Source: Candidatus Binatia bacterium
GTDB taxonomy: Bacteria; Desulfobacterota; Binatia; HRBIN30
NCBI GenBank assembly: GCA_038245295.1
Contig: JBBRSP010000003.1
Coordinates: 320,001-384,000, forward strand
Length of the DNA stretch: 64,000 bases
Direction of reading: 5' to 3'
Of this stretch, positions 1 through 15,212 are shown in pieces (within the stretch, counting starts at the first letter, position 1; every line of letters begins with the position of its first letter). A program made the position numbers and the translations under genes. A model generated the notes under the pieces. The model did no database searches. It was not told where the DNA came from and saw nothing but the letters and a program-made list of their open reading frames with translations.

Positions 1-1
1 T

Positions 2-847
2 TTCGTCGGCGCCACCGCCTATCGGTTGCTCGGCGGTTCACGGCGCTTGGCGCTCGAGCATCTGGAACTTGCGTTCGGCGATCAGTTGACGCCGCGGGTA
101 CGCGAGCGCGTCGCGCGCACCGCGTTCATCAATGCGGCACGCTCGTTCTGTGAGCTGGCCAAAATCGACATGATTCTGCGCCGCCCCGAATACATCGACA
201 CGTTGGGTTGGGAGCACGCCGAGGCGCTGCGGGATGGAGGCAAAGGCTCCATCGTGATCACCGGCCACATTGGCAATTGGGAGCTGCTGGCGGCCTACTT
301 TGTGTCGCGCGGCCTGCCGGTCGCTGCGATCGCTCGACGCATCTACGCTGAGGGGTTGAACGAGCTGCTCGTCAACTTCCGCTCGCGCCACGGCGTTGAG
401 ACGATTCTGCGCGAGAGTCCGAGCTCGGCGCGGCAGATTCTACGGGCGCTGAAGGGTAATTCCGTCCTGGCGATGCTCATCGACCAGGACACGCACGCTC
501 CCTCGGTTTCGGTGCCGTTCTTCGGAAAACTGGCGCGCACTCCGGCGGCGGCCGCCGCCCTGGCGATACGCCGCGATATTCCTGTTGTCGCCGTGTTCAT
601 GCAACGGCGCGACGATTTCGGTTGGCGTGTCGAGGTCAGCCCGCCATTCAAGATCGAGCGCACCGGGGATCACCGCAGCGATGTCCACAAGCTCACGGCG
701 CAGTTTAGCGAGGCGCTGGAAGGGCATATCCGCAAGAGTCCGACCGACTGGGTGTGGTGGCATCGGCGCTGGCGTCGCGGACCGATTCCCCGCCTTGATC
801 TCGATCCGGAAGTTCCTTATCAGCCTGACCAGTCTCGGACCGATTAG
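2..847 (+). CDS. Lipid A lauroyl/lysophospholipid acyltransferase (LpxL/HtrB family), 5' partial
   Basis: GHIGNWEL (HxxxxE), LIDQD, VPFFG and WxWxHRRW motifs; the frame is open to the window edge. Confidence 0.85.
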   Translation, partial: FVGATAYRLLGGSRRLALEHLELAFGDQLTPRVRERVARTAFINAARSFCELAKIDMILRRPEYIDTLGWEHAEALRDGGKGSIVITGHIGNWELLAAYFVSRGLPVAAIARRIYAEGLNELLVNFRSRHGVETILRESPSSARQILRALKGNSVLAMLIDQDTHAPSVSVPFFGKLARTPAAAAALAIRRDIPVVAVFMQRRDDFGWRVEVSPPFKIERTGDHRSDVHKLTAQFSEALEGHIRKSPTDWVWWHRRWRRGPIPRLDLDPEVPYQPDQSRTD

Positions 848-867
848 CTCGGAGGCGCTGTCGCATC

Positions 868-1422
868 ATGACTCCAGATCCTCGCGTCATTCTGATGATG
901 AACTACTACCGTGACGCCGAATTACGCGGCGCCAACCTGTTGTTCCGCTTGATGTCTCATCTGGACGACGCGGACTCTCAGCTCAAACTGTCGCTGCACT
1001 TCCATGAGGAAACTCGCCATGCGTGGTTATGGACGAAGCGGATCAGCGATCTTGGTGGTGTCCCGGCGAAGGTTCGCGACGGCTATCAGTCGCGCATCGG
1101 CTTACGCACCGTCCCACGTAGCCTGATCGAGATTCTTGCCCTGACCGTCATCGTCGAGGAGCGCTCTCTGGCACGTTACAAGGAGCATGCCGCCCGACCG
1201 GACGTCGATCGCGAGACGCTGGCGGTGCTGCAGGAAGTGTCGAAAGACGAGAAGTGGCACATCACCTGGATTCGCAACAAGCTCGAAGCACTGGCCAAGG
1301 CCGAAGGCGCCGAGGACAAGATGCGTCAAGCACTCGAGCGTTATACGGAGATCGACCGCCAGGTCTACGGCGAGTTGCAAGAGAAGGAGCGGCAGGCATT
1401 CGCCTCGCCGTCGCAGGGCTGA
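868..1422 (+). CDS. Ferritin-like di-iron domain protein
   Basis: Helical protein with paired E..ExxH ligand sets (AE..EETRH; EE..DEKWH). Confidence 0.75.
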   Translation: MTPDPRVILMMNYYRDAELRGANLLFRLMSHLDDADSQLKLSLHFHEETRHAWLWTKRISDLGGVPAKVRDGYQSRIGLRTVPRSLIEILALTVIVEERSLARYKEHAARPDVDRETLAVLQEVSKDEKWHITWIRNKLEALAKAEGAEDKMRQALERYTEIDRQVYGELQEKERQAFASPSQG

Positions 1423-1434
1423 AGCACGTCTGAT

Positions 1435-2403
1435 GTGAAGCAATCGAGCGCCGCGGATTCGCTACCGCCGGCGTCCCCACCCCCTTCTGCGACGCGTAAG
1501 GATCGGATCGAGTTTGCGGTGTTTCGCGCCGTAATGGTTCTGCTCGGCGCTCTACCGCGCCGATTTGGACTACGTCTCGGGGCGGCCATTGGCGAGTTGT
1601 TGTACGTGTTCGATCGGCGCGACCGCGCGGTCGCCCTGTTCAACCTGAACATTGCCTTTCCGGACAAGAGCGAGGCCGAGCGACGGCGGATCCTACGGGC
1701 CAGTTGCCGCAACCTGGGACGCCTCGCGGCTGAGTATTGCTACTTCGATCGCTGCAGCGCCGCGGAGATTCTGTCGCACGTCGATTCCGACAACCCGGCC
1801 TGGAAGGCGTTGATGGAACGCAGCACACACGAGGCGGTGCTGGTCGTGACGGCGCACTTCGGCAACTGGGAATTGTTGATCGAGGCGCAGGGACTGCTCG
1901 GCTATCCGGTCCACCTGATCCAAAAGCCGATGCGCAACCCGCTCGTCGATGCGGTGGTCAACGGACGACGGCAAAAGACCGGCACGCGCACGTTGCCGAA
2001 AAAGGCCGCGGCGCGTGATGCCTTACGCGCTCTCAAACGCGGCCCCGGTTTCGTGGCGATTCCGGGGGACCAAAATCAAACGTTGAGCTTCGGGGTGTTT
2101 GTAGACTTCTTCGGCAAACCGGCGTGTACGACACCGGGCGCGGCGCGTTTCGCCATGATGACTGGTGCCCCGGTGTATGCGGTTGTCCTGGCGCGGGTAG
2201 GCGAAAGCGATCAGCACCGCTTCGAGGTTTTGCCGCCAATCGAAATCGTCTCCACCGGCGATCGCGATCGCGACGTGATTACCAACACTCAACATTGCTC
2301 CGACGCGATCGAAACCTTCATCCGTCGTTACCCGGAGCAATGGATCTGGTTCCACAAGCGCTGGAAGACCCGGCCGCCAGGTGAGCCGAAGTTGTATACG
2401 TAA
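1435..2403 (+). CDS. Second LpxL/HtrB-family acyltransferase
   Basis: AHFGNWEL, GDQN, FVDFFG and PEQWIWFHKRWK motifs. Confidence 0.88.
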   Translation: MKQSSAADSLPPASPPPSATRKDRIEFAVFRAVMVLLGALPRRFGLRLGAAIGELLYVFDRRDRAVALFNLNIAFPDKSEAERRRILRASCRNLGRLAAEYCYFDRCSAAEILSHVDSDNPAWKALMERSTHEAVLVVTAHFGNWELLIEAQGLLGYPVHLIQKPMRNPLVDAVVNGRRQKTGTRTLPKKAAARDALRALKRGPGFVAIPGDQNQTLSFGVFVDFFGKPACTTPGAARFAMMTGAPVYAVVLARVGESDQHRFEVLPPIEIVSTGDRDRDVITNTQHCSDAIETFIRRYPEQWIWFHKRWKTRPPGEPKLYT

Positions 2404-2404
2404 G

Positions 2405-2525
2405 CCCTCGCCCGAGCCCACGCCCCTGCCCGCGCCTTGCAGCTGAGCGGATTGCCGATGGGCATGCAGGTTCGTACTGTCTCGCGCAACGCAGGCGGGG
2501 GCGACGGTGTGGGCTCGGGCGAGGG
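2405..2525. terminator. Long inverted repeat between convergent genes; possible bidirectional terminator or repeat element
   Basis: Perfect 17-bp IR: CCCTCGCCCGAGCCCAC (2405-2421) / GTGGGCTCGGGCGAGGG (2509-2525). Confidence 0.5.
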
Positions 2526-2526
2526 G

Positions 2527-3627
2527 TTAGCCCAACTGCATTACCGTGCGAATCCCGCGCCCGGCTCGCATATCGGCGAACGCCTCGTTGATCTCCCCAA
2601 GCGGCCGCCGGTGGGTGATCAGGCCGGCGAGGTCAAGCCGACCGGACTGGTAGAGATTGATGAATCGCGGGATTTCCCGTCGCGCGTTGCAACTTCCGAG
2701 AGCGCAGCCGATGAGCTTCTTCTCCGACAAGGTGAACAAGGCGGCCGGGGCGATGTTGATGACGTCATCCATCGGCGCGGCACCGACGCAGACAGTGGTG
2801 CCGCCGTTGCGCGTCGTGCGTAGGCAGATGTCGATCAAACTGGCGCGACCGACGGCGTCGAAGGCGTAGTCGACGCCGACACTGGTGATATCCATGACGC
2901 GTGTCCACAGATCGTCCGTAGTCGGATCAACGAGATCCGTCGCTCCGAAGTGAGTGGCGGCATGGCGTCGGCTGGCAACTGGATCGGCGGCAATGATTCG
3001 ACTCGCCCCGGCCAGACGTGCGCCCTGCACGATGTTGAGGCCGATGCCGCCGAGCCCGACGACGAGAACCGTCGCGCCCTCTTCAACCCGGGCGGTGTTG
3101 AGGACCGCACCGACGCCGGTCTGAACCGAACAGCCGATGACACAGGCGACATCAAGGGGAACCTCGTCGGGAATCTTGATCGCGCCGCTGGCGGCGCAGA
3201 CGACGTAGTCGCCGAAGCCACCGAGACCGACACCGCGGTAGAGCACCTCGCCGTTGCGTGACAGACCGGTGGTGCCGTCGAGGAACGTGTTTGTGCTCAG
3301 GCTCATGGCGTTGACACAGACGCCATACTCGCCGCGGACGCACCAGTAACAGGTGCCGCAGGCAGGGATGGGCGTGAGAATGACGTGGTCACCGACGGTT
3401 AGTGTGCCGACGTCCGTTCCCACGGCGTCGACAACCCCGGCTGCCTCATGCCCTAGGATGATCGGCGTTGGCGCGGGAAAGACGCCGTCGGCAAGACTCA
3501 GGTCGGAGTGGCAGACACCACAGTTCGTCACGCGTACGCGTACCTGCCCACTGTTGGGCGGCACGATGTCGATCTTGTCCCAAATCTCAAACGGCTTCGC
3601 GAGTTCCGTGAGCACGGCGGCACGCAT
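2527..3627 (-). CDS. Zn-dependent alcohol dehydrogenase (class III-like MDR)
   Basis: CHSD, GHEAAG, structural Zn CxxCxxC..C and GLGGIG motifs; RBS GGAGG. Confidence 0.92.
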   Translation of the reverse strand: MRAAVLTELAKPFEIWDKIDIVPPNSGQVRVRVTNCGVCHSDLSLADGVFPAPTPIILGHEAAGVVDAVGTDVGTLTVGDHVILTPIPACGTCYWCVRGEYGVCVNAMSLSTNTFLDGTTGLSRNGEVLYRGVGLGGFGDYVVCAASGAIKIPDEVPLDVACVIGCSVQTGVGAVLNTARVEEGATVLVVGLGGIGLNIVQGARLAGASRIIAADPVASRRHAATHFGATDLVDPTTDDLWTRVMDITSVGVDYAFDAVGRASLIDICLRTTRNGGTTVCVGAAPMDDVINIAPAALFTLSEKKLIGCALGSCNARREIPRFINLYQSGRLDLAGLITHRRPLGEINEAFADMRAGRGIRTVMQLG

Positions 3628-3773
3628 TCAGTGTCCTCCAGAGCGTCGTGATTTCATTGCGCCGCGGCGGGTGCAACCCCCTGCGGTGTTGGCCTGAGTT
3701 ACATGAGTGCCTCGCCCCCGACCCTCACTGACCTGCTTCGCAGGCGCGAGAGTCGGTTCCTTCGCCCGTTTGA

Positions 3774-5144
3774 TCAGCGCGGCGTTTCGAAGGAGTGCGC
3801 GCCGATAAGCAGAGCGGAGTAAACCTCGAGGCCCTCGGGCTGGTCGCTATCCACTTCGAGTACGGCAAGGCGAACCGATCCGTCCCTCAGGAAGTCGATC
3901 TGCATGAAACCGGGGTGCAGGGAGTTGGACTGGGCGAACAGGGTATGGCGGTTGGTGCCGACGTCGGAGGCGCGTGAGCCCATTCCGGAGACCAGGCTGT
4001 AGCGTGCGCCGCGTGTCGACTCGAACAGTTGCAGACTGTGGTCGTGCCCGGCAGCCCAGACCAGGGGGGCGGCGCCTTCTTTGGCGGCCTCGGCGAGTGA
4101 TAATGTAAATGACTGGCGCATGTGTTTGTAGGTGCCATTCGACGCGTCCTGCGGGCTTGGCGAACAACACTGGCGCAGTCCGACCACCAGCGAGCCTAGT
4201 CCCGGCAATGGAATCCATTGCAGGTAGAATGGAACGTAGTGTTGCAAGATCCGCAACGGGAAGAAGTGCGCCAAGGGGTCGGAGAAACCGCCGTGGGGCC
4301 CTTCGCTCTCCAGCGGATGATGGGCGGCGACGATCACCCAACGCCGTTGTGCGGCGGCCGCTTTGAGCTCCGTGACCAGGGCGCTGCGGACCTGCGGCTC
4401 CGTGCGTTCGGTGCAGTTGGAAGTGGCGGTTTCCCAGGCGAGATCGTGCTTCAAGCGAGGGTCGAGCCACCATTGCGTGTTTAGGGTAATGAGCTCGCCC
4501 ATCGCACCAAGTGGGATGGCGGTCGGCCCGGCGCAACCGCCGGCCGGCAACAACTCGGCGTTGACATCGGTGTAGACGTCGGCTGCCTGGATGAACTTCT
4601 CCTCCTCGAGAATCCGCGACCAGCCGCCTGGTTCGAACTGATCATAATCGTGGTTGCCGGGAACGAAGATGGCGCGTGCCTTGGTGCCGCGCACCACATC
4701 GAGCTGTGCGTTGAGGGACTGCTCCGCCGCTTGGCGGCTGGCGAACAGATCGAGGAACACCGCGTCGGCGATTTGCTTGGCTGTGTCGGCAGCTTGCTCC
4801 CCCGGCTTGGTCACCGGTGGTGGCATACCGCGCTCGTACACATTGTCGCCCAGGAAGGTGACCGTGGTGCGATCCGGCATCTGCCGCGCCTGGTAGGCGA
4901 GGAGGCTGAGTAGCGCATCGCCATTGAGATTGGCGTCGCCGGCATCGCCGATGAGGAGCAGTCGATGGTCGATATCGACCAGGCGCGCCGGCTCGACCGA
5001 AGTCGGTTGGTCGGCTCGATAATACGGATTCAGATGAGTGCAGGCGCTGCTCGTCGCGACACCGAGCACGACGAGCACCCAACGCCAATCTGATCGGCCG
5101 CTGCGTCGACGTCGGCGGCTAGAAGGTGCGGATCTCACCGGCAT
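3774..5144 (-). CDS. Metallophosphoesterase, purple-acid-phosphatase-like, probable lipoprotein
   Basis: IGDAG, GDNVY, GNHD, AHHP and GHDH motifs; Arg-rich N-terminus, hydrophobic stretch and SAC lipobox-like site. Confidence 0.85.
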   Translation of the reverse strand: MPVRSAPSSRRRRRSGRSDWRWVLVVLGVATSSACTHLNPYYRADQPTSVEPARLVDIDHRLLLIGDAGDANLNGDALLSLLAYQARQMPDRTTVTFLGDNVYERGMPPPVTKPGEQAADTAKQIADAVFLDLFASRQAAEQSLNAQLDVVRGTKARAIFVPGNHDYDQFEPGGWSRILEEEKFIQAADVYTDVNAELLPAGGCAGPTAIPLGAMGELITLNTQWWLDPRLKHDLAWETATSNCTERTEPQVRSALVTELKAAAAQRRWVIVAAHHPLESEGPHGGFSDPLAHFFPLRILQHYVPFYLQWIPLPGLGSLVVGLRQCCSPSPQDASNGTYKHMRQSFTLSLAEAAKEGAAPLVWAAGHDHSLQLFESTRGARYSLVSGMGSRASDVGTNRHTLFAQSNSLHPGFMQIDFLRDGSVRLAVLEVDSDQPEGLEVYSALLIGAHSFETPR

Positions 5145-6087
5145 CGATTCGACTCAGGAGGATTCGCAGACGCTCGGCGATGGCGTCGAGCTGCGCGCGT
5201 GTCAGACCAAACTGCAAACCCCAAGGCGCCGGTCGCTCGTTCTCGTCGGGAGAAATGTTCGCTCCGGGTGGCACATTACGCAGGATGCCGGCGGAGTCCT
5301 TTTCGAGTTGGCCGAGGACGGCGAGGCGGTCGAGGTCCCGCCGCGTCACCTTGCGTAACCGCGCAATCGAGGCGGCCGGCAGCGGGACATGGATCTCGTT
5401 GAAGTGTTTCATGAAGAAGTTGTAGAGCACGCCGCCGAAGGCGATGCCGTTGTCGATGGAGAACAGCCGCGGATCGGCGGGGTCGGTTGATTGCAGGAAG
5501 TTGCTGGCTCGGGCGTCACGGTTGTCCGTGAGGTAGTGCAGCAAGTTCAGATTGGCGAAGCTGGTCGCATAGGCCCAATCCTGCCGAAATCGCTGCTCGT
5601 CGTAGGCGCTGTCCGGTTGCTTGACGTTGTCCAGCCAAGCCGCCAGCGCACCATACACGCACCGGGTTCCTGGGAATGTGGGCTGAGCGGCGGCATCGAT
5701 CGCCTTGTAGGTGTCGAGCGCAATACAACGGGCGACGACCGGCGGTACGATGTACCGGTCGTCGTCGAGGAACAGGAATTGCGCTGCATAGGCGCCGATC
5801 TCACGCGGTGGCGAGTCGTTCCAACTGTCGCCGGTTGGGGTAGCGGCCTTCCACTTCGCCTTGATCAGGTACGGTTCCGTGGCGAACTGGAGTTTCGTTT
5901 TCTTGGCGCCCATGACACCGGCGCCGGCGCCGGCAGCTTCAACGATGACGAAGTCGTCGTTCGCGAGGCGGTCCCGTAACGGCGCCGGTGGCAACGGCAG
6001 GTTGGCCGCGGATGCGCGCACCATCGGGGTGAAGGAAAGGAGTGCCAACAGGTAGGCAAGTCCGCGAAGAGGCCGTCGGTTCGTCAT
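5119..6087 (-). CDS. Exported atypical kinase-like protein (CotH/HipA/PI3-4K-like fold)
   Basis: Signal peptide (MTNRRPLRGLAYLLALL..ASA); Gly loop GAGAGVMG, KAKWK, REIGAY, DNRDARASN (DxxxxN) and IDNG; ATGA coupling to the upstream gene. Confidence 0.6.
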   Translation of the reverse strand: MTNRRPLRGLAYLLALLSFTPMVRASAANLPLPPAPLRDRLANDDFVIVEAAGAGAGVMGAKKTKLQFATEPYLIKAKWKAATPTGDSWNDSPPREIGAYAAQFLFLDDDRYIVPPVVARCIALDTYKAIDAAAQPTFPGTRCVYGALAAWLDNVKQPDSAYDEQRFRQDWAYATSFANLNLLHYLTDNRDARASNFLQSTDPADPRLFSIDNGIAFGGVLYNFFMKHFNEIHVPLPAASIARLRKVTRRDLDRLAVLGQLEKDSAGILRNVPPGANISPDENERPAPWGLQFGLTRAQLDAIAERLRILLSRIDAGEIRTF

Positions 6088-7061
6088 GATGCGATCTGCC
6101 TCCGTTCGTCGGTCCGTGCCGCGGCTTGGATGTCGGTTTGGGTGGCGTCGCCCAAGCGCTGCTGCAGCATGAGAAGATGCCGCGCCGAATAGGCGAGAAT
6201 GGCCGCCGCGACATGGAAATGGTCTTCGGCAATATCGAGCAGCAAAGGGACATCGATGCGAATGGCTACCACGTCGGTCTCGGCCTCCACCGCATAGGAG
6301 TGGGGAACGCCGCCAAATGCCGCGTCGAGGCCGAGCAGGTGACCGGCGTCGACCTGCCAGATATCCGCTCCGTCGCCTTCGCATCGTAAGCGGCCTTGGA
6401 CCACCAGAAGGAGGAACTCGGGGCGCGCGTCACGTTCCCAAAGGCGTGCGCCGGCGGTGATGCGAACCTCACCACACTCGCGGATCAGCGCCGCCAGAAC
6501 GCCGACACCGAACGGTCGTAACTCCGGACGCCGCTGCAGCCAGATGAGCTGCTCGACGTATTCCAGCGATGGGGAGGGCGGCGGACCCGGGGGCGCCGGG
6601 ACAGAGAAATGGCCCGGCGTCTGCGAAGCCAGTTGCCGTTGCAGCGCACGTACCTGCCGCCCCATGGCGCTACGCAGTCGGAGGAAGACCCCGAATTGCT
6701 CTTCGATGACCTCGAGCAGGGCGCGGCTGTCGATCACCAGGGCGAGGGAGTTGGTTTCGGCGCTGACGCGCGTATCACTCTCGACCCCAGCCAGGAGTTC
6801 GACGATGCCGAGCACCGCCGGTGAGCTCAATCGACGCCGAGCCCCACGATTTTCGAGCGTAACGCTGCCCTCGACCAGCAGCCGCACACTGTCGACGCGC
6901 CGGTGGGGTTCGGCCAACACCGCGCCGCGTCGAAGCCATTCCTCTCGCATCAGCTGCGCCAACGTCGCCAGCTCATTGGCGTGCAGGTCGCTGAACACGG
7001 GCAGTGATCGCAAGTGGAGCGCTCTTTGTAATGGTTCGACCATTGGCAGCCTATGCTTCAT
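6084..7061 (-). CDS. Protein with two cyclic-nucleotide-binding (Crp-type) domains and no DNA-binding HTH
   Basis: LRSLPVFSDL..LLVEGSV..LGIVE and second repeat LVVQGRL..GHLLGL..EAETDV. Confidence 0.75.
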   Translation of the reverse strand: MKHRLPMVEPLQRALHLRSLPVFSDLHANELATLAQLMREEWLRRGAVLAEPHRRVDSVRLLVEGSVTLENRGARRRLSSPAVLGIVELLAGVESDTRVSAETNSLALVIDSRALLEVIEEQFGVFLRLRSAMGRQVRALQRQLASQTPGHFSVPAPPGPPPSPSLEYVEQLIWLQRRPELRPFGVGVLAALIRECGEVRITAGARLWERDARPEFLLLVVQGRLRCEGDGADIWQVDAGHLLGLDAAFGGVPHSYAVEAETDVVAIRIDVPLLLDIAEDHFHVAAAILAYSARHLLMLQQRLGDATQTDIQAAARTDERRQIAS

Positions 7062-9828
7062 GCGAGAACCTTTCGGCGATGGCTGAGGTCACACCGCTGA
7101 CCATGGCGAGGGATTTCTGGCGCAGGCCGCCAAGCCACTCGGTTGGGTCAATCGCACGTGCCTCCAACGGGGCACGGATGTCGCGCAGATCAAGCTCCGC
7201 CGCGTGATACGAAGCGACGCAGCATACGGAGACGCTCGGGTCTTCGACGAGGCGTAGGAGCAGGGCGTCGTAGGCAAGCGGTTCGGCATCGAGGTAGGTG
7301 CGTGTCGCCGCCAGGCGCAGTTCCAACGGCTGGTCCTCCGTCAGGTCGACGACGACGCCGCGCAGCGTGGGCCCGAGGAGGTCGTGCAGCAACTCGCCGC
7401 TACTCGATCGTGTGCGCGCGTCGGGGCTGCGACGCCCGTCGTAGAGTTTGCTCCAGTCCTCGTCGCGGTACCGCAGCCCGAGGGCACGGAACAGGCGTTC
7501 CACGGCTAGGCCCTCCTTCTGCGCCAAGAGATCGACCAATAATTGATATCCGGTGGTGCGGCGCGCCGGTTGCTCGACGGCACCCTGCTCGAGAGTGACG
7601 CGCCACTGCAGATTCTGGGCGATGGTGCGCACTTGTTCGTCGACGACGCGGTCGATGAGGGTCGGATCGACGTTGAGGGTGGGAGCGTTGGCAATGAGGT
7701 GACCGAGGCCGCGTAGAATCTTGTAGCGCACCATGCCGGTCGGCTCGCTGAGCAGGGCTGCCAGCAGCGTATCGGCCGCCGCCTGATTGCCGAAGCGCGA
7801 GAGCGTTCGCGGCAGATGGATGCGCACCGAGCGTGGCAAGGTCGGGTCGTGCAGGGCGTTTGTCAGGTGCTCGAGCCCGACATCACCGAACAGAAGCAAC
7901 GCCCGCCGGGTTGGGGCGCGTAGCTCGCGTGTCGCCAATTGCCTGAGCAACAGCGGCAGGTGCGCCGCATCCCCCAAGGTGCCGATGGCGACGATCGCTT
8001 CGCGGCGCGTGGCAATGTCCGCAACGCCGAGCAGGCGCTCCATCAGCGGCGCGAAGGCGGGAATTGCGTTGTCGCGCAGCGCGAGTGCCAAAGACCGGGT
8101 GACATCGTCACCAGGGTTGGCTTCGAGGTAGGGCCCCAGGCGTGCGTCGAAGGTTGGCACGTCGAGGTGCCCCGCGGCCGTCAAGGCGACGAGCGCCGTT
8201 ACCGCAACGGGGGCAGAGTCGGAGGCCGCGGCTTGGCGCAGTAGATCGACATCCGGCTGCAGCAGGGAGCAGGCGCGCATCGTGGCGGCACGCACGGAGT
8301 CGTCGGCGTGATGCAGGAGGTACTTGGCATTCTGCAGGAAGTCGTCGCGGCGCGCTTGCGTGAAAAGGTCGAGGGCGCGCAGGACGACCGGGGGCGAAGG
8401 GTGGTAGAGGACGAGGGCCGGGATGAGGTGCGTGCGCCCGGTCTCATGCAGCAACGACATGGCCGCCGTAACCTTGCCATCATCCGGGCTGCTCAGCGCC
8501 GCGATGAGCGTTTCCAGGGAAGCCATGTCGAGCTCCGGGAAATCGATCTGCATGGCGATGGCCCCTTCGCCGAGCGTCTCGCGAAACAGGTCCAGGTACG
8601 GTTGGCGCAGCGACAGGGCCAGATAGATCCAAGCCATCGTACAGGCGATTAGGATGGGGCCGATCAGCCGCTCCGACGGAGCGATGGCCAGCCAGCCGAG
8701 GATCAGCAGCGACGCCAGCGCCTGGCCGCCACGATGTGCCAGAATATCGCTGACCGCTTTGACCGCGCTCCGTAACCGCGGTGACAGCGGCACATAAAGC
8801 AACTCGGTGGCCGTCTTGTGGAGCGACCAACGCAACACGCCGTCGACGCCTCGCAAACAGAGTACGGCGGCCAGACCGCCGGTGATGGTCAGCAGCACGC
8901 CGCCGCCGAACAGGAGCACCGGCTGCAGCGCCAGCGCCTCGGTGACGCCGCGGGCGCGCACGAAGGGCACCACGGCGGTGAACAACAACAGCAAGGCCAG
9001 GAGATCGAAGAGAAAGTAACTAGCCGCCAGAAAGGATCCGAGCTGTGCCGGGCTGATCTCGCGCGCCACGACGGTCTTGAAGATGAAGTCTCCCAGCGTG
9101 ACGGTAACGCTGGCGACGAGAAGCAGCAGCGCGACTCGGCGCATGTAGTTGTGACGCAGGGCCAGGCTGATGCTTTCACGAATGCTCAATTCTTCGTGCG
9201 CCGGGCGCGCGATGACTGTCGCGGCATCGTCGCTGGCGCGGCACGCTTGTGCCCTGGCCATCAGGTACGAAGCACCGGCACTGAGCAAGAAGACGGCGGC
9301 GCTGACGCCCAGGAGGTAACGCGGCGCCATATAACGCGCCGTCACGCCGGCGAGCCCGTACCCGACGAGTGAGCCGAGTAGCGGCCCTGCGGCGATCACC
9401 GGGAACACTCGTTTGGCCTGCGTCGGCGTGAAGCGATCGCTCAGCATCAACCAGAAACGCAGCAGGATGAGGGTCGAGGCGAGCCCGCCCCACACATACA
9501 AGGCATAGAGAGCAGCCGCTGGTTTCGTCTCGCTCAGCAGAAACAACAGGGCCAGGTTGCCGGTCGCGGCGGCGATCTGCAGCAGGATCAGCTTCTCTGC
9601 GTGCTGCTGTGGTGCGGCTGAACCAGAAAATAGCCGCGTCGCCGCCAACGCCAAACCCGCCAAGACCAGGTAGACCCAGGGCAGATGGCTGGCGGGAAGA
9701 TGGGACAGGAACAGGGCGTCGCGAGCCGTTTCGAGCATCGAGTGGGCGACGAGAACCAGGAACACCGTGATGGTGGCCCAGATCGTCGCGCCGCGTTCAT
9801 CGGGATGGACGTCAGCCAACCAACGCAT
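7051..9828 (-). CDS. NTT/Npt (TLC ATP/ADP-translocase-like) transporter fused to HEAT repeats
   Basis: About 12 TM with LETARDALFL, QAKRVFPVI and ELLYVPL..KAVSD motifs, then about 500 aa of HEAT-like repeats; RBS GAGGA. Confidence 0.85.
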   Translation of the reverse strand: MRWLADVHPDERGATIWATITVFLVLVAHSMLETARDALFLSHLPASHLPWVYLVLAGLALAATRLFSGSAAPQQHAEKLILLQIAAATGNLALLFLLSETKPAAALYALYVWGGLASTLILLRFWLMLSDRFTPTQAKRVFPVIAAGPLLGSLVGYGLAGVTARYMAPRYLLGVSAAVFLLSAGASYLMARAQACRASDDAATVIARPAHEELSIRESISLALRHNYMRRVALLLLVASVTVTLGDFIFKTVVAREISPAQLGSFLAASYFLFDLLALLLLFTAVVPFVRARGVTEALALQPVLLFGGGVLLTITGGLAAVLCLRGVDGVLRWSLHKTATELLYVPLSPRLRSAVKAVSDILAHRGGQALASLLILGWLAIAPSERLIGPILIACTMAWIYLALSLRQPYLDLFRETLGEGAIAMQIDFPELDMASLETLIAALSSPDDGKVTAAMSLLHETGRTHLIPALVLYHPSPPVVLRALDLFTQARRDDFLQNAKYLLHHADDSVRAATMRACSLLQPDVDLLRQAAASDSAPVAVTALVALTAAGHLDVPTFDARLGPYLEANPGDDVTRSLALALRDNAIPAFAPLMERLLGVADIATRREAIVAIGTLGDAAHLPLLLRQLATRELRAPTRRALLLFGDVGLEHLTNALHDPTLPRSVRIHLPRTLSRFGNQAAADTLLAALLSEPTGMVRYKILRGLGHLIANAPTLNVDPTLIDRVVDEQVRTIAQNLQWRVTLEQGAVEQPARRTTGYQLLVDLLAQKEGLAVERLFRALGLRYRDEDWSKLYDGRRSPDARTRSSSGELLHDLLGPTLRGVVVDLTEDQPLELRLAATRTYLDAEPLAYDALLLRLVEDPSVSVCCVASYHAAELDLRDIRAPLEARAIDPTEWLGGLRQKSLAMVSGVTSAIAERFSHEA

Positions 9829-9834
9829 ATGTCC

Positions 9835-10560
9835 TCAGAAGGTGACCTGCAGTGCCAGGCCCGTGCCGTTTGGCGCAACGTGCCACGCCACGGGTTGCGG
9901 CGCGCGCGCGAATCGGCGCTGATACTCCTCCCAATCGTTGGCCGGCCACCAGGGTTGGCTCCACAGGGCTACCTCGCCAACCGCGATTCCGATTCCGGCC
10001 GAGCGCCAAGCACGCGTGCGATCGTCAAAACCCTTCCAGACAATGAGGGCGCCGGCGGTGTTGATGCCGACGTTCAGGGCATGGCGCAGCCAATTGAACC
10101 GGTTGTCGGAAACATCGGCGTTGGTCTGCAACTGCGTCTCGGCAAGCGCCAGTTGGGCGCGCCGTTCGGCCGGGGTCTTGCCGGGCAGGGCGCGGACCGA
10201 ATCGGCGCCATCTTTCGCTGCGAGCGGACGCAGCAGGAGTCCGGTTACGCCACCCGCCGCTTTGACGGCGCTGACGATGTAGTCGGCGCGTTCACCCTTG
10301 GTGTCGGAGAGGCCCGCCCGGACACTTTGGACGACGACGCCGGTTCCATAGAAGGCGGTCCAGCCGTGCCACCAGTACCAGGCATAGTCGCGACCCGAGT
10401 CGAGATGCTCCTCGAGAAAGGCCAGTCGGCGGTCGACCTCCGAGTCGCTCATCTGCTCGACGTGCGCCAGAATGTTTGGCGCCTCCGCGGCAAACGAACC
10501 GAGAGGAGCGAGCAGTAGCAAGACGTAGAGGAGCGACGGCGTCAGACGTTTCAACATCAT
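9835..10560 (-). CDS. Hypothetical exported/membrane protein
   Basis: Signal peptide, several hydrophobic segments and a C-terminal alternating strand ending in Phe (LALQVTF); ATGA coupling. Confidence 0.7.
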   Translation of the reverse strand: MMLKRLTPSLLYVLLLLAPLGSFAAEAPNILAHVEQMSDSEVDRRLAFLEEHLDSGRDYAWYWWHGWTAFYGTGVVVQSVRAGLSDTKGERADYIVSAVKAAGGVTGLLLRPLAAKDGADSVRALPGKTPAERRAQLALAETQLQTNADVSDNRFNWLRHALNVGINTAGALIVWKGFDDRTRAWRSAGIGIAVGEVALWSQPWWPANDWEEYQRRFARAPQPVAWHVAPNGTGLALQVTF

Positions 10561-11969
10561 TCTCCCATGCGGCGTGGGCTGCGAGCGAAGACGCCCACCG
10601 AGGGTGGGTCGCCTTTGCGCGGGTCGTAGACACGCTGCATGAGGATGCGCGTGCGGAAGGCCGGCTGCGAAGCGATCGGTTGTAGATCGATCGATAAGGC
10701 CGGCGATGTCGGCGTTTGGTTGGAAAGAGTCGTCGACTCGTCGAAATGCCGGCCGGCCGCTACCGCACAGGCAAGCCACGCGATGACGACCAGCAGACTG
10801 ATTACGGCCAAAGCCTGGACCGAGTCGGCCAGCAACCAGGTCGTCGACGCAAGGATTAGCAGCGAGCTGAGCCCCTTGGCAAAGCGCATCAGGAACATGT
10901 CGATGAACGCTTTGGCCTGATACTTCGTCGCCTCGTCGGTGGGCGTGTAAAGGACTTCCTTGGCCGCCTGATTGAGCGAGTAGCTCAGCGCCGCATCACT
11001 GAAGAAGGCGGTGGCAATCACGGCAAACAGAGGCATCACCAGGAACGAGGCGCTGCCGAGAGCGAGACACACGGGCAGGATGAGCAGCCCGACGCGAGGC
11101 CCCCAACGGCGCAGGACGGCGGTGGTGACGACGAATTGCACGATTGCCGAGACGACAATGGCGGCTGTGCTGAAACGTCCGAGGAAGGCTGCCATCGCGG
11201 CCTCGTCGGTGAAGCGCAAGGCGACGAACGTGTTGAACTGGTAATCGATGATGTTGGAGACGATCTCGTAGAGGATTACGATCAGGGCGATCGAGGTCAG
11301 ATAGCTCGATCGGAACGTCAGCCGGGCGCCGTTGACGGCGTCTTTCAGCGCCGACTCGGGGCGCGCCACGGTGGCGACAGCCGCGTCGCTGTGGTGCGCC
11401 ACCCAGCGCGCCGCGCCGGCGATGCCGAGAAGTAAGGCGACACAGACGAGGAGCAGGTTTGCCGGGCCAAGATTCTGGGCGCCAAAGCCGGTCAATCCAC
11501 TCCCGAGAGCTCCGCCGATGATGCCGCCGGCGCCGATGAAACCGTAGTCGCGCCGCGCTTGCTCCGGCGAAGTCACGTCGTTGGCGAAGCTCCAAAACAG
11601 AGCGACCATTACGGAGTTGAAGATGTCGACGTAGAAGAAATAGACGTACTGCATCCACGTGCCGCTGCCGAAGGTGAACTTCCACCAGAAGAACAGCGAA
11701 CCCAGGCTGAAGGTCACCACACAGAAATAGACGATATGCTCGCGGCGAAACCGCGCGGCCAGGCTGGAATAGAGGAGTACGACCGGCAGCATGAGGGCTG
11801 CCGTTCCTAGCTTTACCCACGGCAACCCTCTGGGACCAACCGTGGTGAGGAAGTGCGAGGTGCGAATCGGCTTCTGAATCCAGAACGCCGCGATGACGAG
11901 CAAAAAAAAGACAAACAGACCGACGATGCGCGCCCGCTCTCGTCGACGTTCATCGAGAGTCCCCACCAT
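10557..11969 (-). CDS. Stand-alone NTT/Npt-family nucleotide transporter
   Basis: About 12 TM; KPIRTSHFL, FWSFANDV..QARR and YSLNQAAKEVLYTP..KYQAKAFID motifs. Confidence 0.85.
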   Translation of the reverse strand: MVGTLDERRRERARIVGLFVFFLLVIAAFWIQKPIRTSHFLTTVGPRGLPWVKLGTAALMLPVVLLYSSLAARFRREHIVYFCVVTFSLGSLFFWWKFTFGSGTWMQYVYFFYVDIFNSVMVALFWSFANDVTSPEQARRDYGFIGAGGIIGGALGSGLTGFGAQNLGPANLLLVCVALLLGIAGAARWVAHHSDAAVATVARPESALKDAVNGARLTFRSSYLTSIALIVILYEIVSNIIDYQFNTFVALRFTDEAAMAAFLGRFSTAAIVVSAIVQFVVTTAVLRRWGPRVGLLILPVCLALGSASFLVMPLFAVIATAFFSDAALSYSLNQAAKEVLYTPTDEATKYQAKAFIDMFLMRFAKGLSSLLILASTTWLLADSVQALAVISLLVVIAWLACAVAAGRHFDESTTLSNQTPTSPALSIDLQPIASQPAFRTRILMQRVYDPRKGDPPSVGVFARSPRRMGE

Positions 11970-11983
11970 TTGGCGGTAAGAGG

Positions 11984-11999
11984 AGCAACGCTTGTGCCC
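11984..11999 (-). promoter_or_regulatory. Sigma54-like -24/-12 promoter of the NTT operon
   Basis: Minus strand GGGCACAAGCGTTGCT, i.e. GG-N10-GC with GGCAC..TTGC, ending about 15 nt before ATG 11969. Confidence 0.5.
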
Positions 12000-12228
12000 G
12001 CAGCGCGATAACCGGGGTTGCACAGGAAAGCGAAGTCAGGGGCCGAGACCCGGGGTAAGGTTTACAGACGTTGTGGAGGAGTTCGCCCGCCAGGCTTCGG
12101 CGAACGCAGTTAGAGACTAGCGAGCGTTACCCAGGCCATCCCGTGAAACGGCGGCCGAGCCTCCCAATCACGCGTATTGAGGACGAAACGAAGCGCACGG
12201 AGCGGCACCTGCCGGTACCAAGAATTTC

Positions 12229-12617
12229 GGTAGCGGGTCCGGTTGATTTCCAAGGGTAGGCAACGTCATTCCGGCGAAAGAGTATGTCGATTTACTCGGG
12301 AACCATATGTTTTGAAACCGAGCAGACCTATCCGTCATATCGGCGGAAGAGACGGTCCATTTTCTCTGATTCATCGTTTGAAACTACGCAAACACCTCCG
12401 TCATACCGGCGAAAGCCGGGGTATCTCCCCATCGTGTTTGGCCTTCCACTCGAGGAGATCCCGGCTTCCGCCGGGATGACGTTGCTTCATTTTGGTTTTA
12501 CGACAGTCTCGAAAGCCGGGATCTCCTCAAGCGGAAGCCTGGAAAGGCCGGCGAGATTCCGGCGTTCGCCGGAATGACGAATCCTCGCCGCCTCGGTTTT
12601 CAAATGAACCCATTACC
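12229..12617. mobile_element. Outer REP-cored miniature element with IS1-like imperfect terminal inverted repeats
   Basis: Ends GGTAGCGGGTCCGGTTGA / GGTAATGGGTTCATTTGA; internal GTCATTCCGGCGAAA..GCCGGAATGAC palindromes; no target duplication seen. Confidence 0.5.
12280..12510. mobile_element. MITE copy A (GAGACTGTCG-type ends) inserted in a REP hairpin loop
   Basis: TIR GAGTATGTCG / CGACAGTCTC; 4-bp duplication GAAA at 12276-12279 and 12511-12514. Confidence 0.8.
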
Positions 12618-14418
12618 AGGAGTCCCCGCTGCCGAAAATGCACTGACCGGGCGGCGGGTGCCCGTGCAGTTTGCGCTGGTCTTGACGCCGCTCGGTTATG
12701 CGAGCCTCGGTTATGCAATCGTCAAACACGACCTGTGGGACATCGACCGCATCGTGCGTCGCACCTTTGCCTACGTTTTGGTGAGCATGATCGTTCTGGC
12801 AGGGTATGCCGGACTTCTCGAAGCGTCTCTTCGTTGGATGCCGGCGATTGGAAGTGAGGGGCAGACTCTCCTCGGAATGGGCTTCGTTCTGGCCCTTGCC
12901 GTGTTTCTCGATCCCTTGCGTGGCGCCGTGCAATCGGTCGTGGACTCGGCGTTTTTTCGCCGACGGTTGGACTATCGTGCGACGATCCGTGAGCTGAGCG
13001 CGGTGATGACGACGTTGTTGGACCTGCGCGAGATCATCGCGCAGGTCACGCGCGTCGTGACCGACGGCATGCAGCTCGAGTCGATGACCACCGGCCTGAC
13101 GGCCGAGCATGGACGAAGTGTGGTGTGGCAACGCTCGGCAGAGGGGGAACTACAATCGAGCGACGCCGGGCGTGAGGTTGTAGCCCTGGCCGGTGCGGCG
13201 ATTCAAGCGCCGATCGCGGACGTGCGCGCCGTGACGGGTCAGATCGATGATCCCGTCGAGCGAGCGGCGGCGCAGGCTCTGATTGTCGCGACCCGGGCGC
13301 AGCTGGTGATTCCGGTGAGCTTTCAAGGAACGTCGATCGGCGTGCTGCTCCTCGGCTCGCGGCGCTCCGGCTTGCCGCTGGAATCAGAGGCGATTGATCT
13401 GCTGCGGACCCTCGCGGATCAGAGCGCCATTGCGGTCCAGAACGCCCACGCACACGCGGCGCTGGAGGCGCTGAATCGCGACCTCGATGCGCAGGTGCGG
13501 GTGCGTACCCGTGAGCTGCGCGAAGCATACGATGAGTTGAAGAGCGCCCAGGCGCAGCTCATCCAATCTGAAAAGATGGCGTCACTCGGTCAACTGGTGG
13601 CGGGAGTCGCACACGAGCTCAACAACCCGGCCAGTTTCTTGTACGCCGGCCTCGAGAACATCGAGGAAAGTGTCGGCCGTTTACGCACCGTGTTGCAGGC
13701 GTATGAGGCGATTCCGGTCAGCGACCCGGCTGTGCGGGCTCACCTCGACGATGTTCGCGAGCGCGAACAACTCGCCTCCGTTTTGCAGGAACTTCCGGGG
13801 TTACTGAGTATCAGTGGGGAAGGGTTGGATCGGATCAAACGCATCGTCGACGACCTGCGCGTCTTCGCGCGCGCCGATAGCGGCGAGCGCGTTCGCACGG
13901 ACGTCGTGAAAGGGATCGAAGCCAGTTTGCGACTCCTGGGAAATCAGCTGTCGCGATCGCGCATCCGGGTTGTGGTGGAAGCCGAGCCGCAGCTGCCCAC
14001 TATCGAGGCCAATGCGTCACAGCTCAATCAGGTCTGGATGAATCTGTTGTCGAACGCCATTGATGCCGTGTCGGAACGCCGCGAGCCCGAGATTCGGGTC
14101 GGCGTCCGGCTTATCGCTGTGCAAGATTCGGCGCGCGTGCTGGAGGTGGAGATCAAGGACAATGGGCGTGGCGTCGAGGCGACTCATCTACGGCGCTTGT
14201 TCGAGCCGTTCTTTACTACGAAGCCGATTGGTCAAGGCACCGGGCTCGGCCTCAGCATCGCGTACGGCGCTGTCAAAGCGCATGGCGGGACGATTGAGAT
14301 CGAGAGTGAACCGGGCGGCGGGACCCGCGTCAGCGTGCGGCTCCCCGCCGAAGAGCCGACGCCACCCCCCACGCCAGAGGCGAGAAGGGTGGCGGAAGCG
14401 GTTAGGCGTGAAGCCTAG
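12574..14418 (+). CDS. Membrane GAF + HisKA + HATPase histidine kinase (NtrB-like), apparently N-terminally truncated
   Basis: EKMASLGQLVAGVAHELNNP H-box, NLLSNA, DNGRG, FEPFFTTK and GTGLGL; only about 3 TM remain, and the available ATGs lie inside the MITE. Confidence 0.85.
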   Translation: MTNPRRLGFQMNPLPGVPAAENALTGRRVPVQFALVLTPLGYASLGYAIVKHDLWDIDRIVRRTFAYVLVSMIVLAGYAGLLEASLRWMPAIGSEGQTLLGMGFVLALAVFLDPLRGAVQSVVDSAFFRRRLDYRATIRELSAVMTTLLDLREIIAQVTRVVTDGMQLESMTTGLTAEHGRSVVWQRSAEGELQSSDAGREVVALAGAAIQAPIADVRAVTGQIDDPVERAAAQALIVATRAQLVIPVSFQGTSIGVLLLGSRRSGLPLESEAIDLLRTLADQSAIAVQNAHAHAALEALNRDLDAQVRVRTRELREAYDELKSAQAQLIQSEKMASLGQLVAGVAHELNNPASFLYAGLENIEESVGRLRTVLQAYEAIPVSDPAVRAHLDDVREREQLASVLQELPGLLSISGEGLDRIKRIVDDLRVFARADSGERVRTDVVKGIEASLRLLGNQLSRSRIRVVVEAEPQLPTIEANASQLNQVWMNLLSNAIDAVSERREPEIRVGVRLIAVQDSARVLEVEIKDNGRGVEATHLRRLFEPFFTTKPIGQGTGLGLSIAYGAVKAHGGTIEIESEPGGGTRVSVRLPAEEPTPPPTPEARRVAEAVRREA

Positions 14419-14906
14419 CGACAAGCGGTTCCGACGTTGGCCCAGTCGCCGTCGGCACACAGGAACGTCACGCCGGCTTTACAAACGGTCGAGTTGCTGG
14501 CGACGGTGACGTCGTTGAGCATGCACGTACGCGTGCCGCCGACGGCTCGCATCGGCACATCACCGACGGTACACGTCAGGCCGGTACTGATCCAAGCACC
14601 GTCGTCACAGCGCTTCTGCGTGCCAGCCTGGCAGCTCGATGAACCCGGCGAGTAGCTGATGCCGGAGAGGATACAGGCTGGGGCGATAGCCTTGGCGGAG
14701 ACATCGTCGCAGGCGCGGCTGAGCGATTCCCACTTGCCGTCGTCACAGCGGTGCAGTGTGCCTGCCTGGCACATGCTGCCACCGTCGGAGGAGGTGCTTC
14801 CCTTGTATACGCAGGAGCTACCCGCCATCGCACTCGTGCAGGCGGTGCTGCTGATCGTCAAGGCGGCTGCGAGGACCAAGCCTCGGATTCCCAGTGTCTT
14901 CATCAT
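14415..14906 (-). CDS. Small exported Cys-rich protein with three DUF1496-like repeats
   Basis: Signal peptide plus 3x C-x-(Y/L)-x-G..S.G..C.AG....C.DG.W...C; RBS AGGAG. Confidence 0.7.
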   Translation of the reverse strand: MMKTLGIRGLVLAAALTISSTACTSAMAGSSCVYKGSTSSDGGSMCQAGTLHRCDDGKWESLSRACDDVSAKAIAPACILSGISYSPGSSSCQAGTQKRCDDGAWISTGLTCTVGDVPMRAVGGTRTCMLNDVTVASNSTVCKAGVTFLCADGDWANVGTACR

Positions 14907-15212
14907 GATGCGTCTCCTTTTGCTCTGTTGACCGGCGTCCGCGGCAACCGTTGCCGTGTTGGCGGAGTCAGTGACCGCGCCCGCGAATTCCAATGGATGC
15001 GTGTGCCGGTCGTTTGGTTGCTGGTGTTGTAACTACGCGAGTCGGGGAGGCGGCGTAATCTCGGAGTACTACGCGCGTGGTTCTACGGCAGCTTCAACTC
15101 GGCATCAGCGTGCGCTGCCCATCTAGAACGAACCACTCCCCCAGCCTGCAGTGCAGGCGTGGGGGACTGGGGAGTGCAATCAGTGTGGGTGAGAGCCGAG
15201 CGAAGCGGTGTC

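Follow-up and report, generated by a model that had tools for sequence, protein, structure and literature searches.

How might an enzyme placed outside the cytoplasm be fed with adenosine triphosphate (ATP), when, to our knowledge, the periplasm has no ATP supply? An operon of Candidatus Binatia raises this question together with a second one, namely, what NTT nucleotide carriers do in free-living bacteria, which Major, Embley, and Williams described as open in 2017 (PMC5381601; this and the other papers given by PMC number are cited from parts of their texts). The window that we analyzed is a stretch of 64,000 nucleotides (nt) from a Candidatus Binatia bacterium (contig JBBRSP010000003.1, positions 320,001 to 384,000), and the operon occupies positions 3774 to 11969 of its minus strand as six intact head-to-tail open reading frames (ORFs). 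In order, these encode a stand-alone NTT carrier, a hairpin-tailed protein, an NTT-HEAT fusion, a protein with two cyclic-nucleotide-binding (cNMP) folds, an atypical kinase, and a metallophosphoesterase. The operon suggests one answer to both questions, that is, that ATP is shipped across the inner membrane for reversible phosphorylation in the envelope. The system is real, conserved, and apparently undescribed, and its mechanism is drawn wholly from genomic and structural inference. The genes are coupled as an earlier note on this DNA had read them, with an ATGA overlap at 10557 to 10560, a 6-nt gap, an 11-nt overlap, an ATGA overlap at 6084 to 6087, and a 26-nt overlap at the five successive junctions from gene 1 to gene 6. 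Position 11999, where that note had ended the operon, is no start codon; the start of gene 1 is uncertain, with an ATG at 11969 that has no clear ribosome-binding site and a GTG at 12023 as the alternative.

The kinase recurs beside NTT carriers in other genomes. We collected 80 kinase loci from species-representative genomes, with flanks fetched up to 10 kb per side; related loci occur in Candidatus Binatia, Myxococcota, other Deltaproteobacteria, Gemmatimonadota, Acidobacteria, and some Alpha- and Gammaproteobacteria. An NTT gene was found in the fetched flanks of 43/80 loci by profiles, which were built from these same loci and favor their own sources, and of 41/80 by tblastn alone. It lay within 300 nt of the kinase in 23/80 loci. 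Among the 31 loci whose flanks were complete, 21 had an NTT gene. Assuming two NTT genes per 5-Mb genome, chance would place one near the kinase in about 0.8% of loci; the proposed link between kinase and carrier is thus far above chance. Fisher P values of 1e-12 from these neighborhood counts and of 5e-5 from the comparison of signal peptides with NTT genes described below were not accepted as tests, since related loci do not count as independent observations.

Among 251 genomes of the same class, its own genome included, a Pfam TLC match was present in 22 of the 32 kinase-positive and 21 of the 219 kinase-negative genomes. Pfam TLC under-detects these carriers, as five TLC-negative genomes had a carrier adjoining the kinase by profiles built from these loci. 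Besides the genome of the window, 31 genomes of the class were kinase positive, and we fetched kinase loci from 23 of these, the first batch having been picked for a kinase and a TLC gene on one contig. A carrier stood beside the kinase in 20 of the 23; in two, the contig ended after a HEAT or cNMP gene, and one had none. The 80-locus and 23-locus sets are not independent because about a dozen loci recur in both. Five genes (both carriers, the cNMP protein, the kinase, and the purple acid phosphatase [PAP]-type phosphatase) occurred together in 8/23, in several orders, and all six genes occurred in 2/23 and in 1/80 loci, the latter being one of the two. The conserved core is therefore the kinase plus a carrier. 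Of the co-occurrence that the earlier note had proposed to check for all six families, the kinase-carrier part held; conservation of the six as a set was rejected, since all six recur in only two other genomes, one of them with a truncated phosphatase. One six-gene genome, from the same family, repeats the window order and has the closest syntenic operon; its phosphatase (L120:4468-5082) is short of about 260 residues through an in-frame gap that is either real or an assembly error.

The kinase had no Pfam family match and was not retrieved by PDB sequence searches. Its assignment comes from its AlphaFold2 model (predicted local distance difference test [pLDDT] score, 90.7). The top Foldseek match of the model was Fam20C (E = 6.7e-7). 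The model aligned with Hydra VIA Fam20 over 251 residues (Z = 17.4; root mean square deviation [rmsd], 4.2) and with PI4KIIalpha over 233 residues (Z = 15.6; rmsd, 4.0), and identity to Fam20 and type II PI4K structures was 14 to 21%. CtkA (Z = 12.4), CotH (Z = 11.1), MavQ (Z = 8.7), and HipA were lower matches. The kinase residue set comprises a glycine loop at 55 to 60, K78, E96, D191, N196, and D212. Counted over those rows of 150 representatives that have any residue at the position, K78 was conserved in 134/139, E96 in 133/140, D191 in 146/149, N196 in 131/149, and D212 in 143/147. The roles of beta3 lysine, alphaC glutamate, catalytic aspartate, and metal-binding aspartate are ones that we assume from motif position and general kinase anatomy. 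By sequence, the family is nearer PI3_PI4_kinase (PF00454; 16/72 members at an E value of 0.1 or less, best 1.7e-6) than Fam20C (PF06702; 1/72, E = 0.064), and the window kinase matched neither profile. Judged by its model, the kinase would work like the Fam20/PI4K-II kinases yet stands outside Fam20 proper. Besides the window protein, a first search gave 91 relatives, and a full HMMER search gave 677 clusters at 50% identity; no relative was found in a plasmid collection. A word-indexed search came back blank for longer homologues, which is a sensitivity limit because the full HMMER search found fusions.

The same kinase is predicted to be exported. Residues 10 to 28 of the window protein form a hydrophobic stretch that reads as a signal peptide; here and throughout, signal peptides were called by a hydrophobicity heuristic and inspection by eye. 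Of 120 complete representatives (30 incomplete ones were left out), 103 had a signal-like N terminus, and 51 of those 103 had a lipobox-like motif. In the nearer set, 41/72 passed the heuristic, a lower share because that set takes in signal-less forms. In some members, the kinase follows a signal peptide and a beta-lactamase-like domain within one fusion protein, an arrangement that independently hints at an envelope location. The reading of gene 5 as a signal-bearing protein with an ATP-dependent kinase fold thus gains from the model, the intact catalytic residues, and the frequency of signals in the family. When signals were set against carriers, signal-bearing kinases had a nearby NTT gene in 46 rows and none in 11, and signal-less kinases had one in 0 rows and none in 7. 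This count omits rows with a flank under 3 kb and no NTT (16 signal-bearing, 1 signal-less), 2 rows of unclear N terminus, and five loci that were frameshifted, partial, or duplicates; in six rows, the N terminus was judged by eye. A tree built from 32 of the 83 rows places the seven signal-less kinases, including the genome's second copy, in one clade (support, 99/93) close to the window kinase. That second copy (G000:C2:360736-361653), the only further one found by tblastn in the 6.6-Mb genome, sits on another contig with no carrier nearby and appears from its sequence to be a cytoplasmic offshoot of the exported family. Beyond the operon, tblastn found no NTT-like gene in the genome. One protein elsewhere, P0316, joins an NTT to a kinase through an extra hydrophobic segment.

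The two carriers are related and probably not equivalent. The stand-alone carrier belongs to Pfam TLC (E = 5.5e-24; 85 bits against a cutoff of 21), its hydrophobic segments (Table 1) having been counted at a Kyte-Doolittle value of at least 1.0, and the fusion matched TLC (E = 2.4e-7) and HEAT_2 (E = 1.6e-9). At 87 and 30 bits, the two fall far under the NCBIfam cutoff of 387 for the NTP/NDP exchanger TIGR00769 and are therefore distant family members. A phmmer search of PDB matched the stand-alone carrier to ADP,ATP carrier protein 1 (9j3j, E = 8e-19; 9j3n, E = 1e-16). The transport cycle of plastid NTT1, a counter-exchanger, requires phosphate, ADP, and ATP (PMC3306366), and K155, E245, E385, and K527 of AtNTT1 are important to this carrier (PMC3306366, PMC4256464). 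These align with K53, D115, D242, and K365 of the stand-alone carrier, so that charge is kept at 4/4 sites; the numbering was transferred through an alignment to 9j3j_A, in which a single offset of 84 fits all four positions, and K53 falls within a weakly scored N-terminal segment. The NTT-HEAT carrier has Y, G, D, and Q at the same sites, with one charge left and three lost, and does not have the residues of a canonical exchanger. Across kinase loci without a PPDK-like gene, all four charges were present in 27/33 single carriers, and 0/15 fused carriers having a single partner kept more than two. Where no partner of a fused carrier was visible (three cases), three charges were retained. One "fused" row of this residue table is a carrier in frame with a hairpin protein, and one "single" row is a split fusion.

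The contrast between stand-alone and HEAT-fused residues suggests a division of labor, in which the stand-alone carrier is likely a working nucleotide exchanger and the NTT-HEAT protein is likely a regulatory or altered-substrate subunit. Because three of four charges are lost in the fused carrier and all four are kept in the other, the two probably differ in job, and the earlier treatment of "the carriers" as one function probably does not stand. Two further observations concern carriers elsewhere. At L010:772-3036, a single open frame spans a stand-alone-type carrier and a hairpin-tailed protein, through either fusion or a lost stop. The TLC-like carriers in L132-L134, L137, and L138 differ in residue signature and have genes for copper efflux, multicopper oxidase, or aldo-keto reductase as neighbors; another cargo is thus probable for part of the TLC family.

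The fusion has a likely partner in gene 4, which has two cNMP_binding (PF00027) stretches (E = 1.8e-14); the Pfam scan showed no other family and no DNA-binding domain. The protein has no hydrophobic N terminus and is cytoplasmic by sequence, and in relatives (proteins 55 and 57-59) it is fused to NTT-HEAT. Taking the cassette that binds the phosphate of cyclic AMP or cyclic GMP to be defined by a glutamate and an arginine, we found aspartate and histidine at these places in domain 2 and a shifted cassette in domain 1. About half of 20 aligned cNMP-fold sequences keep the domain 2 arginine. Since its cassettes are degenerate, gating of transport by a cyclic nucleotide, as first envisaged for this operon, is unsupported.

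Gene 2 had been labeled a membrane protein. Apart from its N-terminal signal, the protein has no strongly hydrophobic stretch; hence, it is not a multipass inner-membrane protein. It matched no Pfam or NCBIfam family and had 115 homologues. Its AlphaFold2 model (pLDDT, 91.9) is a long helical bundle, in which polar residues are conserved, with a C-terminal beta-hairpin. Foldseek returned nothing at an E value of 0.001 or less, and the best Z score, 7.7, is helical-bundle background; in the Atlas, there were unnamed clusters only, the nearest named one being DUF6992 at 0.88. The last residue was F in 103/105 and W in 2/105 aligned members, and 95/105 had a signal-like N terminus. A C-terminal hairpin ending in phenylalanine is presumably an outer-membrane-type signal, and the protein may thus be an accessory targeted to the outer membrane. 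The gene was present in 11/80 kinase loci, and a carrier, kinase, or phosphatase match was present in 10/38 loci found with it, many of them on short contigs, so we regard it as accessory. A complex prediction for the kinase and this protein returned "no answer" with a score of 0.00 and was counted neither way.

The phosphatase is calcineurin-like (Pfam Metallophos, E = 3.2e-6) and has a lipoprotein signal; signal and cysteine are present in most relatives. The blocks DxG, GDxxY, GNH[D/E], xxH, and GHxH, which we take to be the PAP metal-binding motifs, were found in 16/16 aligned sequences, duplicates counted. Together with the lipoprotein cysteine, they uphold the earlier description of a PAP-like phosphoesterase lipoprotein. 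Phosphatases occurred in the flanks of 26/80 kinase loci (tyrosine type, 12; PAP type, 8; a second metallophosphoesterase, 3; LNS2/HAD, 3). These four groups, of three unrelated folds, alternate beside the kinase, most with a signal or lipoprotein N terminus, and in two proteins (P0267 and P0292) the kinase is fused to a PPP-like phosphatase.

From these results, we propose that the operon would be an ATP supply line for phosphorylation beyond the cytoplasm. The stand-alone NTT would be a counter-exchanger reversed relative to those of parasites, letting cytoplasmic ATP out and ADP (with phosphate) in. The exported Fam20/PI4K-II-like kinase would use the exported ATP to phosphorylate an acceptor in the envelope, from which the lipoprotein phosphatase would strip the phosphate, so both enzymes would generate the counter-substrates of the carrier. 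The degenerate NTT-HEAT and the cytoplasmic cNMP-fold protein may form a control arm that gates flux and limits ATP loss, with the exported hairpin-tailed protein as an accessory outer-membrane partner. Gene coupling, families, the kinase fold, conserved residues, signal sequences (by the heuristic), and co-location are what the analysis shows; we infer from them that the cargo is ATP, that it moves outward, that the control arm is regulatory, and that the location is periplasmic. On balance, a flow of ATP out and of ADP and phosphate back that feeds an envelope kinase/phosphatase cycle seems to us probable, if not strongly so. As to the acceptor, an envelope protein is our first guess, held at a little under even; a lipid or glycan is a possible but less probable choice, and a small molecule is rather unlikely. 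Protein is suggested by the PPP-like fusions, lipid by LNS2 and the likeness to PI4K, and the cell wall by the beta-lactamase-like fusion.

Exported ATP-using enzymes of other families also stand beside carriers. An enzyme with PPDK_N and a His-swivel domain was found in 10/80 kinase loci, and all copies with a readable start had a signal peptide; a DUF2252/APH-like lipoprotein was found in 3/80. Among 12 TLC loci from the 21 kinase-negative genomes with TLC, four held the PPDK-like enzyme and one held another exported kinase-like protein. The PPDK-like enzyme (about 1,000 amino acids, with a conserved His motif) occurs beside NTT carriers, whose residue signature differs, and Beta-lactamase2-type proteins (L024, L028, L030, L053, L136, L156, L158, L159, and others); from sequence, these loci are a candidate second exported ATP-dependent system. 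At L157:4486-12087, an exported 562-amino-acid kinase-like protein of another family, with motifs seen by eye, is accompanied by an Omp85 gene, two NTT carriers, and a BON-domain gene. A broader proposal, which we offer tentatively and hold to be somewhat less probable than not, is that gated NTT-built ATP export to the periplasm in many uncultured bacteria powers unrelated exported ATP enzymes (the Fam20/PI4K-II-like kinase, the PPDK-like ATP-grasp enzyme, and the APH-like kinase). In this lineage, the work would be divided between a transporting carrier and a pseudo-carrier whose HEAT and cNMP-fold parts serve as the control arm, and the kinase and phosphatase would carry out reversible phosphorylation of envelope proteins, a bacterial counterpart of secretory-pathway phosphorylation in animals.

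Several results weigh against ATP export. The signal-less, NTT-less kinases are a single clade; therefore, the control that they provide amounts to one event and is suggestive only. Eleven signal-bearing kinases with a flank of at least 3 kb have no nearby NTT, and in L088 a signal-less kinase, with the same N terminus as that of L009, stands beside an exported phosphatase and a hairpin protein with no NTT over 12 kb upstream and 7.6 kb downstream. P0316 is a singleton on one contig and may reflect a lost stop. Three partner tyrosine-type phosphatases (L016, L017, and L030) have no signal peptide, and 7/12 TLC loci from kinase-negative genomes have no recognizable exported ATP enzyme. In the PPDK-type loci, single carriers keep one canonical charge (12/12) and fused carriers keep none (12/12), so the residues give no support for ATP/ADP exchange there. 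More generally, NTT sequence does not reveal substrate. Microsporidian NTTs altered at three sites still transport ATP and GTP (PMC4256464), which weakens an "inactive" reading of NTT-HEAT, and the characterized NTTs all come from parasites or organelles and have roles in uptake (PMC5381601).

This characterized role in uptake favors scavenging, with the phosphatase trimming phosphorylated compounds outside the cell, the carriers bringing nucleotides in, and the kinase either drawing on ATP from the environment or being a bystander; a 5'-nucleotidase gene after the NTT in L158 and PhoX and phytase-like genes near some kinases fit as well. However, the kinase has a carrier for a neighbor more often than it has any phosphatase (43/80 against 26/80), its catalytic residues are conserved, signal-peptide loss coincides with carrier absence (in one event), and the phosphatase would destroy the very compound that an importer seeks. 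We consider scavenging quite unlikely. The loss of three of four transport charges from NTT-HEAT in this clade and the degenerate cNMP-fold motifs would also suit signaling, with the kinase and phosphatase controlling how much phosphorylated periplasmic ligand (or ADP/AMP) there is, NTT-HEAT acting as a transceptor that reads this level and relays it through HEAT and the cNMP fold, and bulk ATP export being minor. Related histidine-kinase genes flank 14/80 loci and lie between carrier and kinase in Gemmatimonadota loci. Yet many kinase loci, some on short contigs, show a stand-alone carrier only, and 16/18 such carriers have four charges; the HEAT arm therefore looks dispensable while the carrier stays, and the kinase would still require a phosphate donor outside. 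Signaling, which is partly compatible with ATP export, is in our view unlikely as the main role. That the kinase acts inside another cell, host or prey, where there is ATP, with the carriers taking that cell's nucleotides, is highly improbable. Host-delivered bacterial kinases (CtkA and MavQ) are among the fold matches, and NTTs are typical of endoparasites (PMC5381601). Against this, the lipobox-like motif in 51 of the 103 signal-bearing representatives would tether the kinase, some kinases are fused to a beta-lactamase-like envelope domain, the 6.6-Mb genome is not reduced, and secretion-system genes were not recurrent among the scanned neighbors, except for VgrG-like genes in two related loci.

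Parts of the operon have known counterparts. NTT-HEAT and NTT-HEAT-cNBD proteins of free-living bacteria were reported with unknown function (PMC5381601), and, as in the operon, NTT is there fused to HEAT, with a cNMP-binding gene within a few bases (here, the 11-nt overlap). The parts of that main text cited here treat ATP uptake, thylakoids, and heterocysts and name no kinase or phosphatase neighbors (PMC5381601). The operon differs in adding a stand-alone carrier with the canonical charges that the fusion lost and co-operonic exported enzymes. Plastid and parasite ATP/ADP exchangers (AtNTT1; 9j3j and 9j3n; TIGR00769 and PF03219) are homologous and share the four-site charge with the stand-alone carrier, which differs in its score far under the TIGR00769 cutoff, in two Glu-to-Asp exchanges, and in its proposed direction, ATP moving outward from a free-living cell. 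Fam20A/B/C and the type II PI4 kinases, the best structural matches of the kinase, likewise have Asp-Asn-Gly in place of DFG, and the window kinase is bacterial and smaller than Fam20. Like Fam20, it would be placed beyond a membrane, where nucleotide must be supplied, and for Fam20, an ATP carrier of the endoplasmic reticulum/Golgi offers a parallel. CotH, the spore coat kinase, is a bacterial, Fam20C-related atypical kinase that acts at the cell exterior (PMC12189002); the window kinase matched its fold more weakly and had no CotH Pfam match, and the cited parts of that paper do not mention a carrier link. The operon phosphatase shares all five metal-ligand motif blocks with purple acid phosphatase/ACP5-type enzymes; it differs in being a bacterial lipoprotein that is swapped elsewhere for tyrosine-phosphatase, LNS2/HAD, or PPP-like enzymes. 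In a literature search whose coverage leaves out most subscription journals, no title or abstract start tied NTT carriers to exported kinases. The parts are thus of known superfamilies and NTT-HEAT/cNMP is published; their combination with an exported kinase was not found in print. If ATP export is correct, one operon would answer both opening questions with named parts: a carrier expected to exchange ATP for ADP, a second carrier that might not do so, the exported kinase, and the phosphatase that undoes its work. An ATP-dependent regulatory layer would be added to the bacterial envelope, there would be a bacterial model for Fam20-type kinases, and NTT genes would be unsafe as a mark of parasitism.

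Table 1. Genes of the operon, in the order of transcription, with positions in the window
Gene product	Position	Strand	Features
Stand-alone NTT/TLC carrier (gene 1)	10557..11969	(-)	470 aa; 12 hydrophobic segments; Pfam TLC
Exported helical protein, hairpin-tailed (gene 2)	9835..10560	(-)	241 aa; family-less; signal peptide (predicted); C-terminal Phe
NTT-HEAT fusion (gene 3)	7051..9828	(-)	925 aa; Pfam TLC + HEAT_2
Tandem cNMP-fold protein (gene 4)	6084..7061	(-)	325 aa; Pfam cNMP_binding x2
Exported atypical kinase (gene 5)	5119..6087	(-)	322 aa; Fam20/PI4K-II-type fold in AlphaFold2 model
PAP-type metallophosphoesterase lipoprotein (gene 6)	3774..5144	(-)	456 aa; Pfam Metallophos; Cys35

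Around these genes, the operon region gave no match to a sigma-70-type promoter and no excess of terminators, and positions 1 to 16000 of the window gave no Rfam match. The downstream alcohol dehydrogenase gene (2527 to 3627) was rejected as a part of the operon; it is present in 2/80 kinase loci. Upstream, a cluster of short, REP-like palindromic repeats lies at 12250 to 12620, with 457 blastn matches over 43 contigs of the same genome. It directly precedes a GAF/histidine-kinase ORF (12574 to 14418, plus strand) that may be without its N-terminal sensor part. Farther on, both on the minus strand, are a signal-bearing, Cys-rich protein of 192 amino acids that contains short repeats and matched neither Pfam nor NCBIfam (14415 to 14993) and a repetitive, surface-protein-like ORF of 2,952 amino acids (15213 to 24071) with a signal-like N terminus and a Pro/Thr-rich linker near its C terminus.

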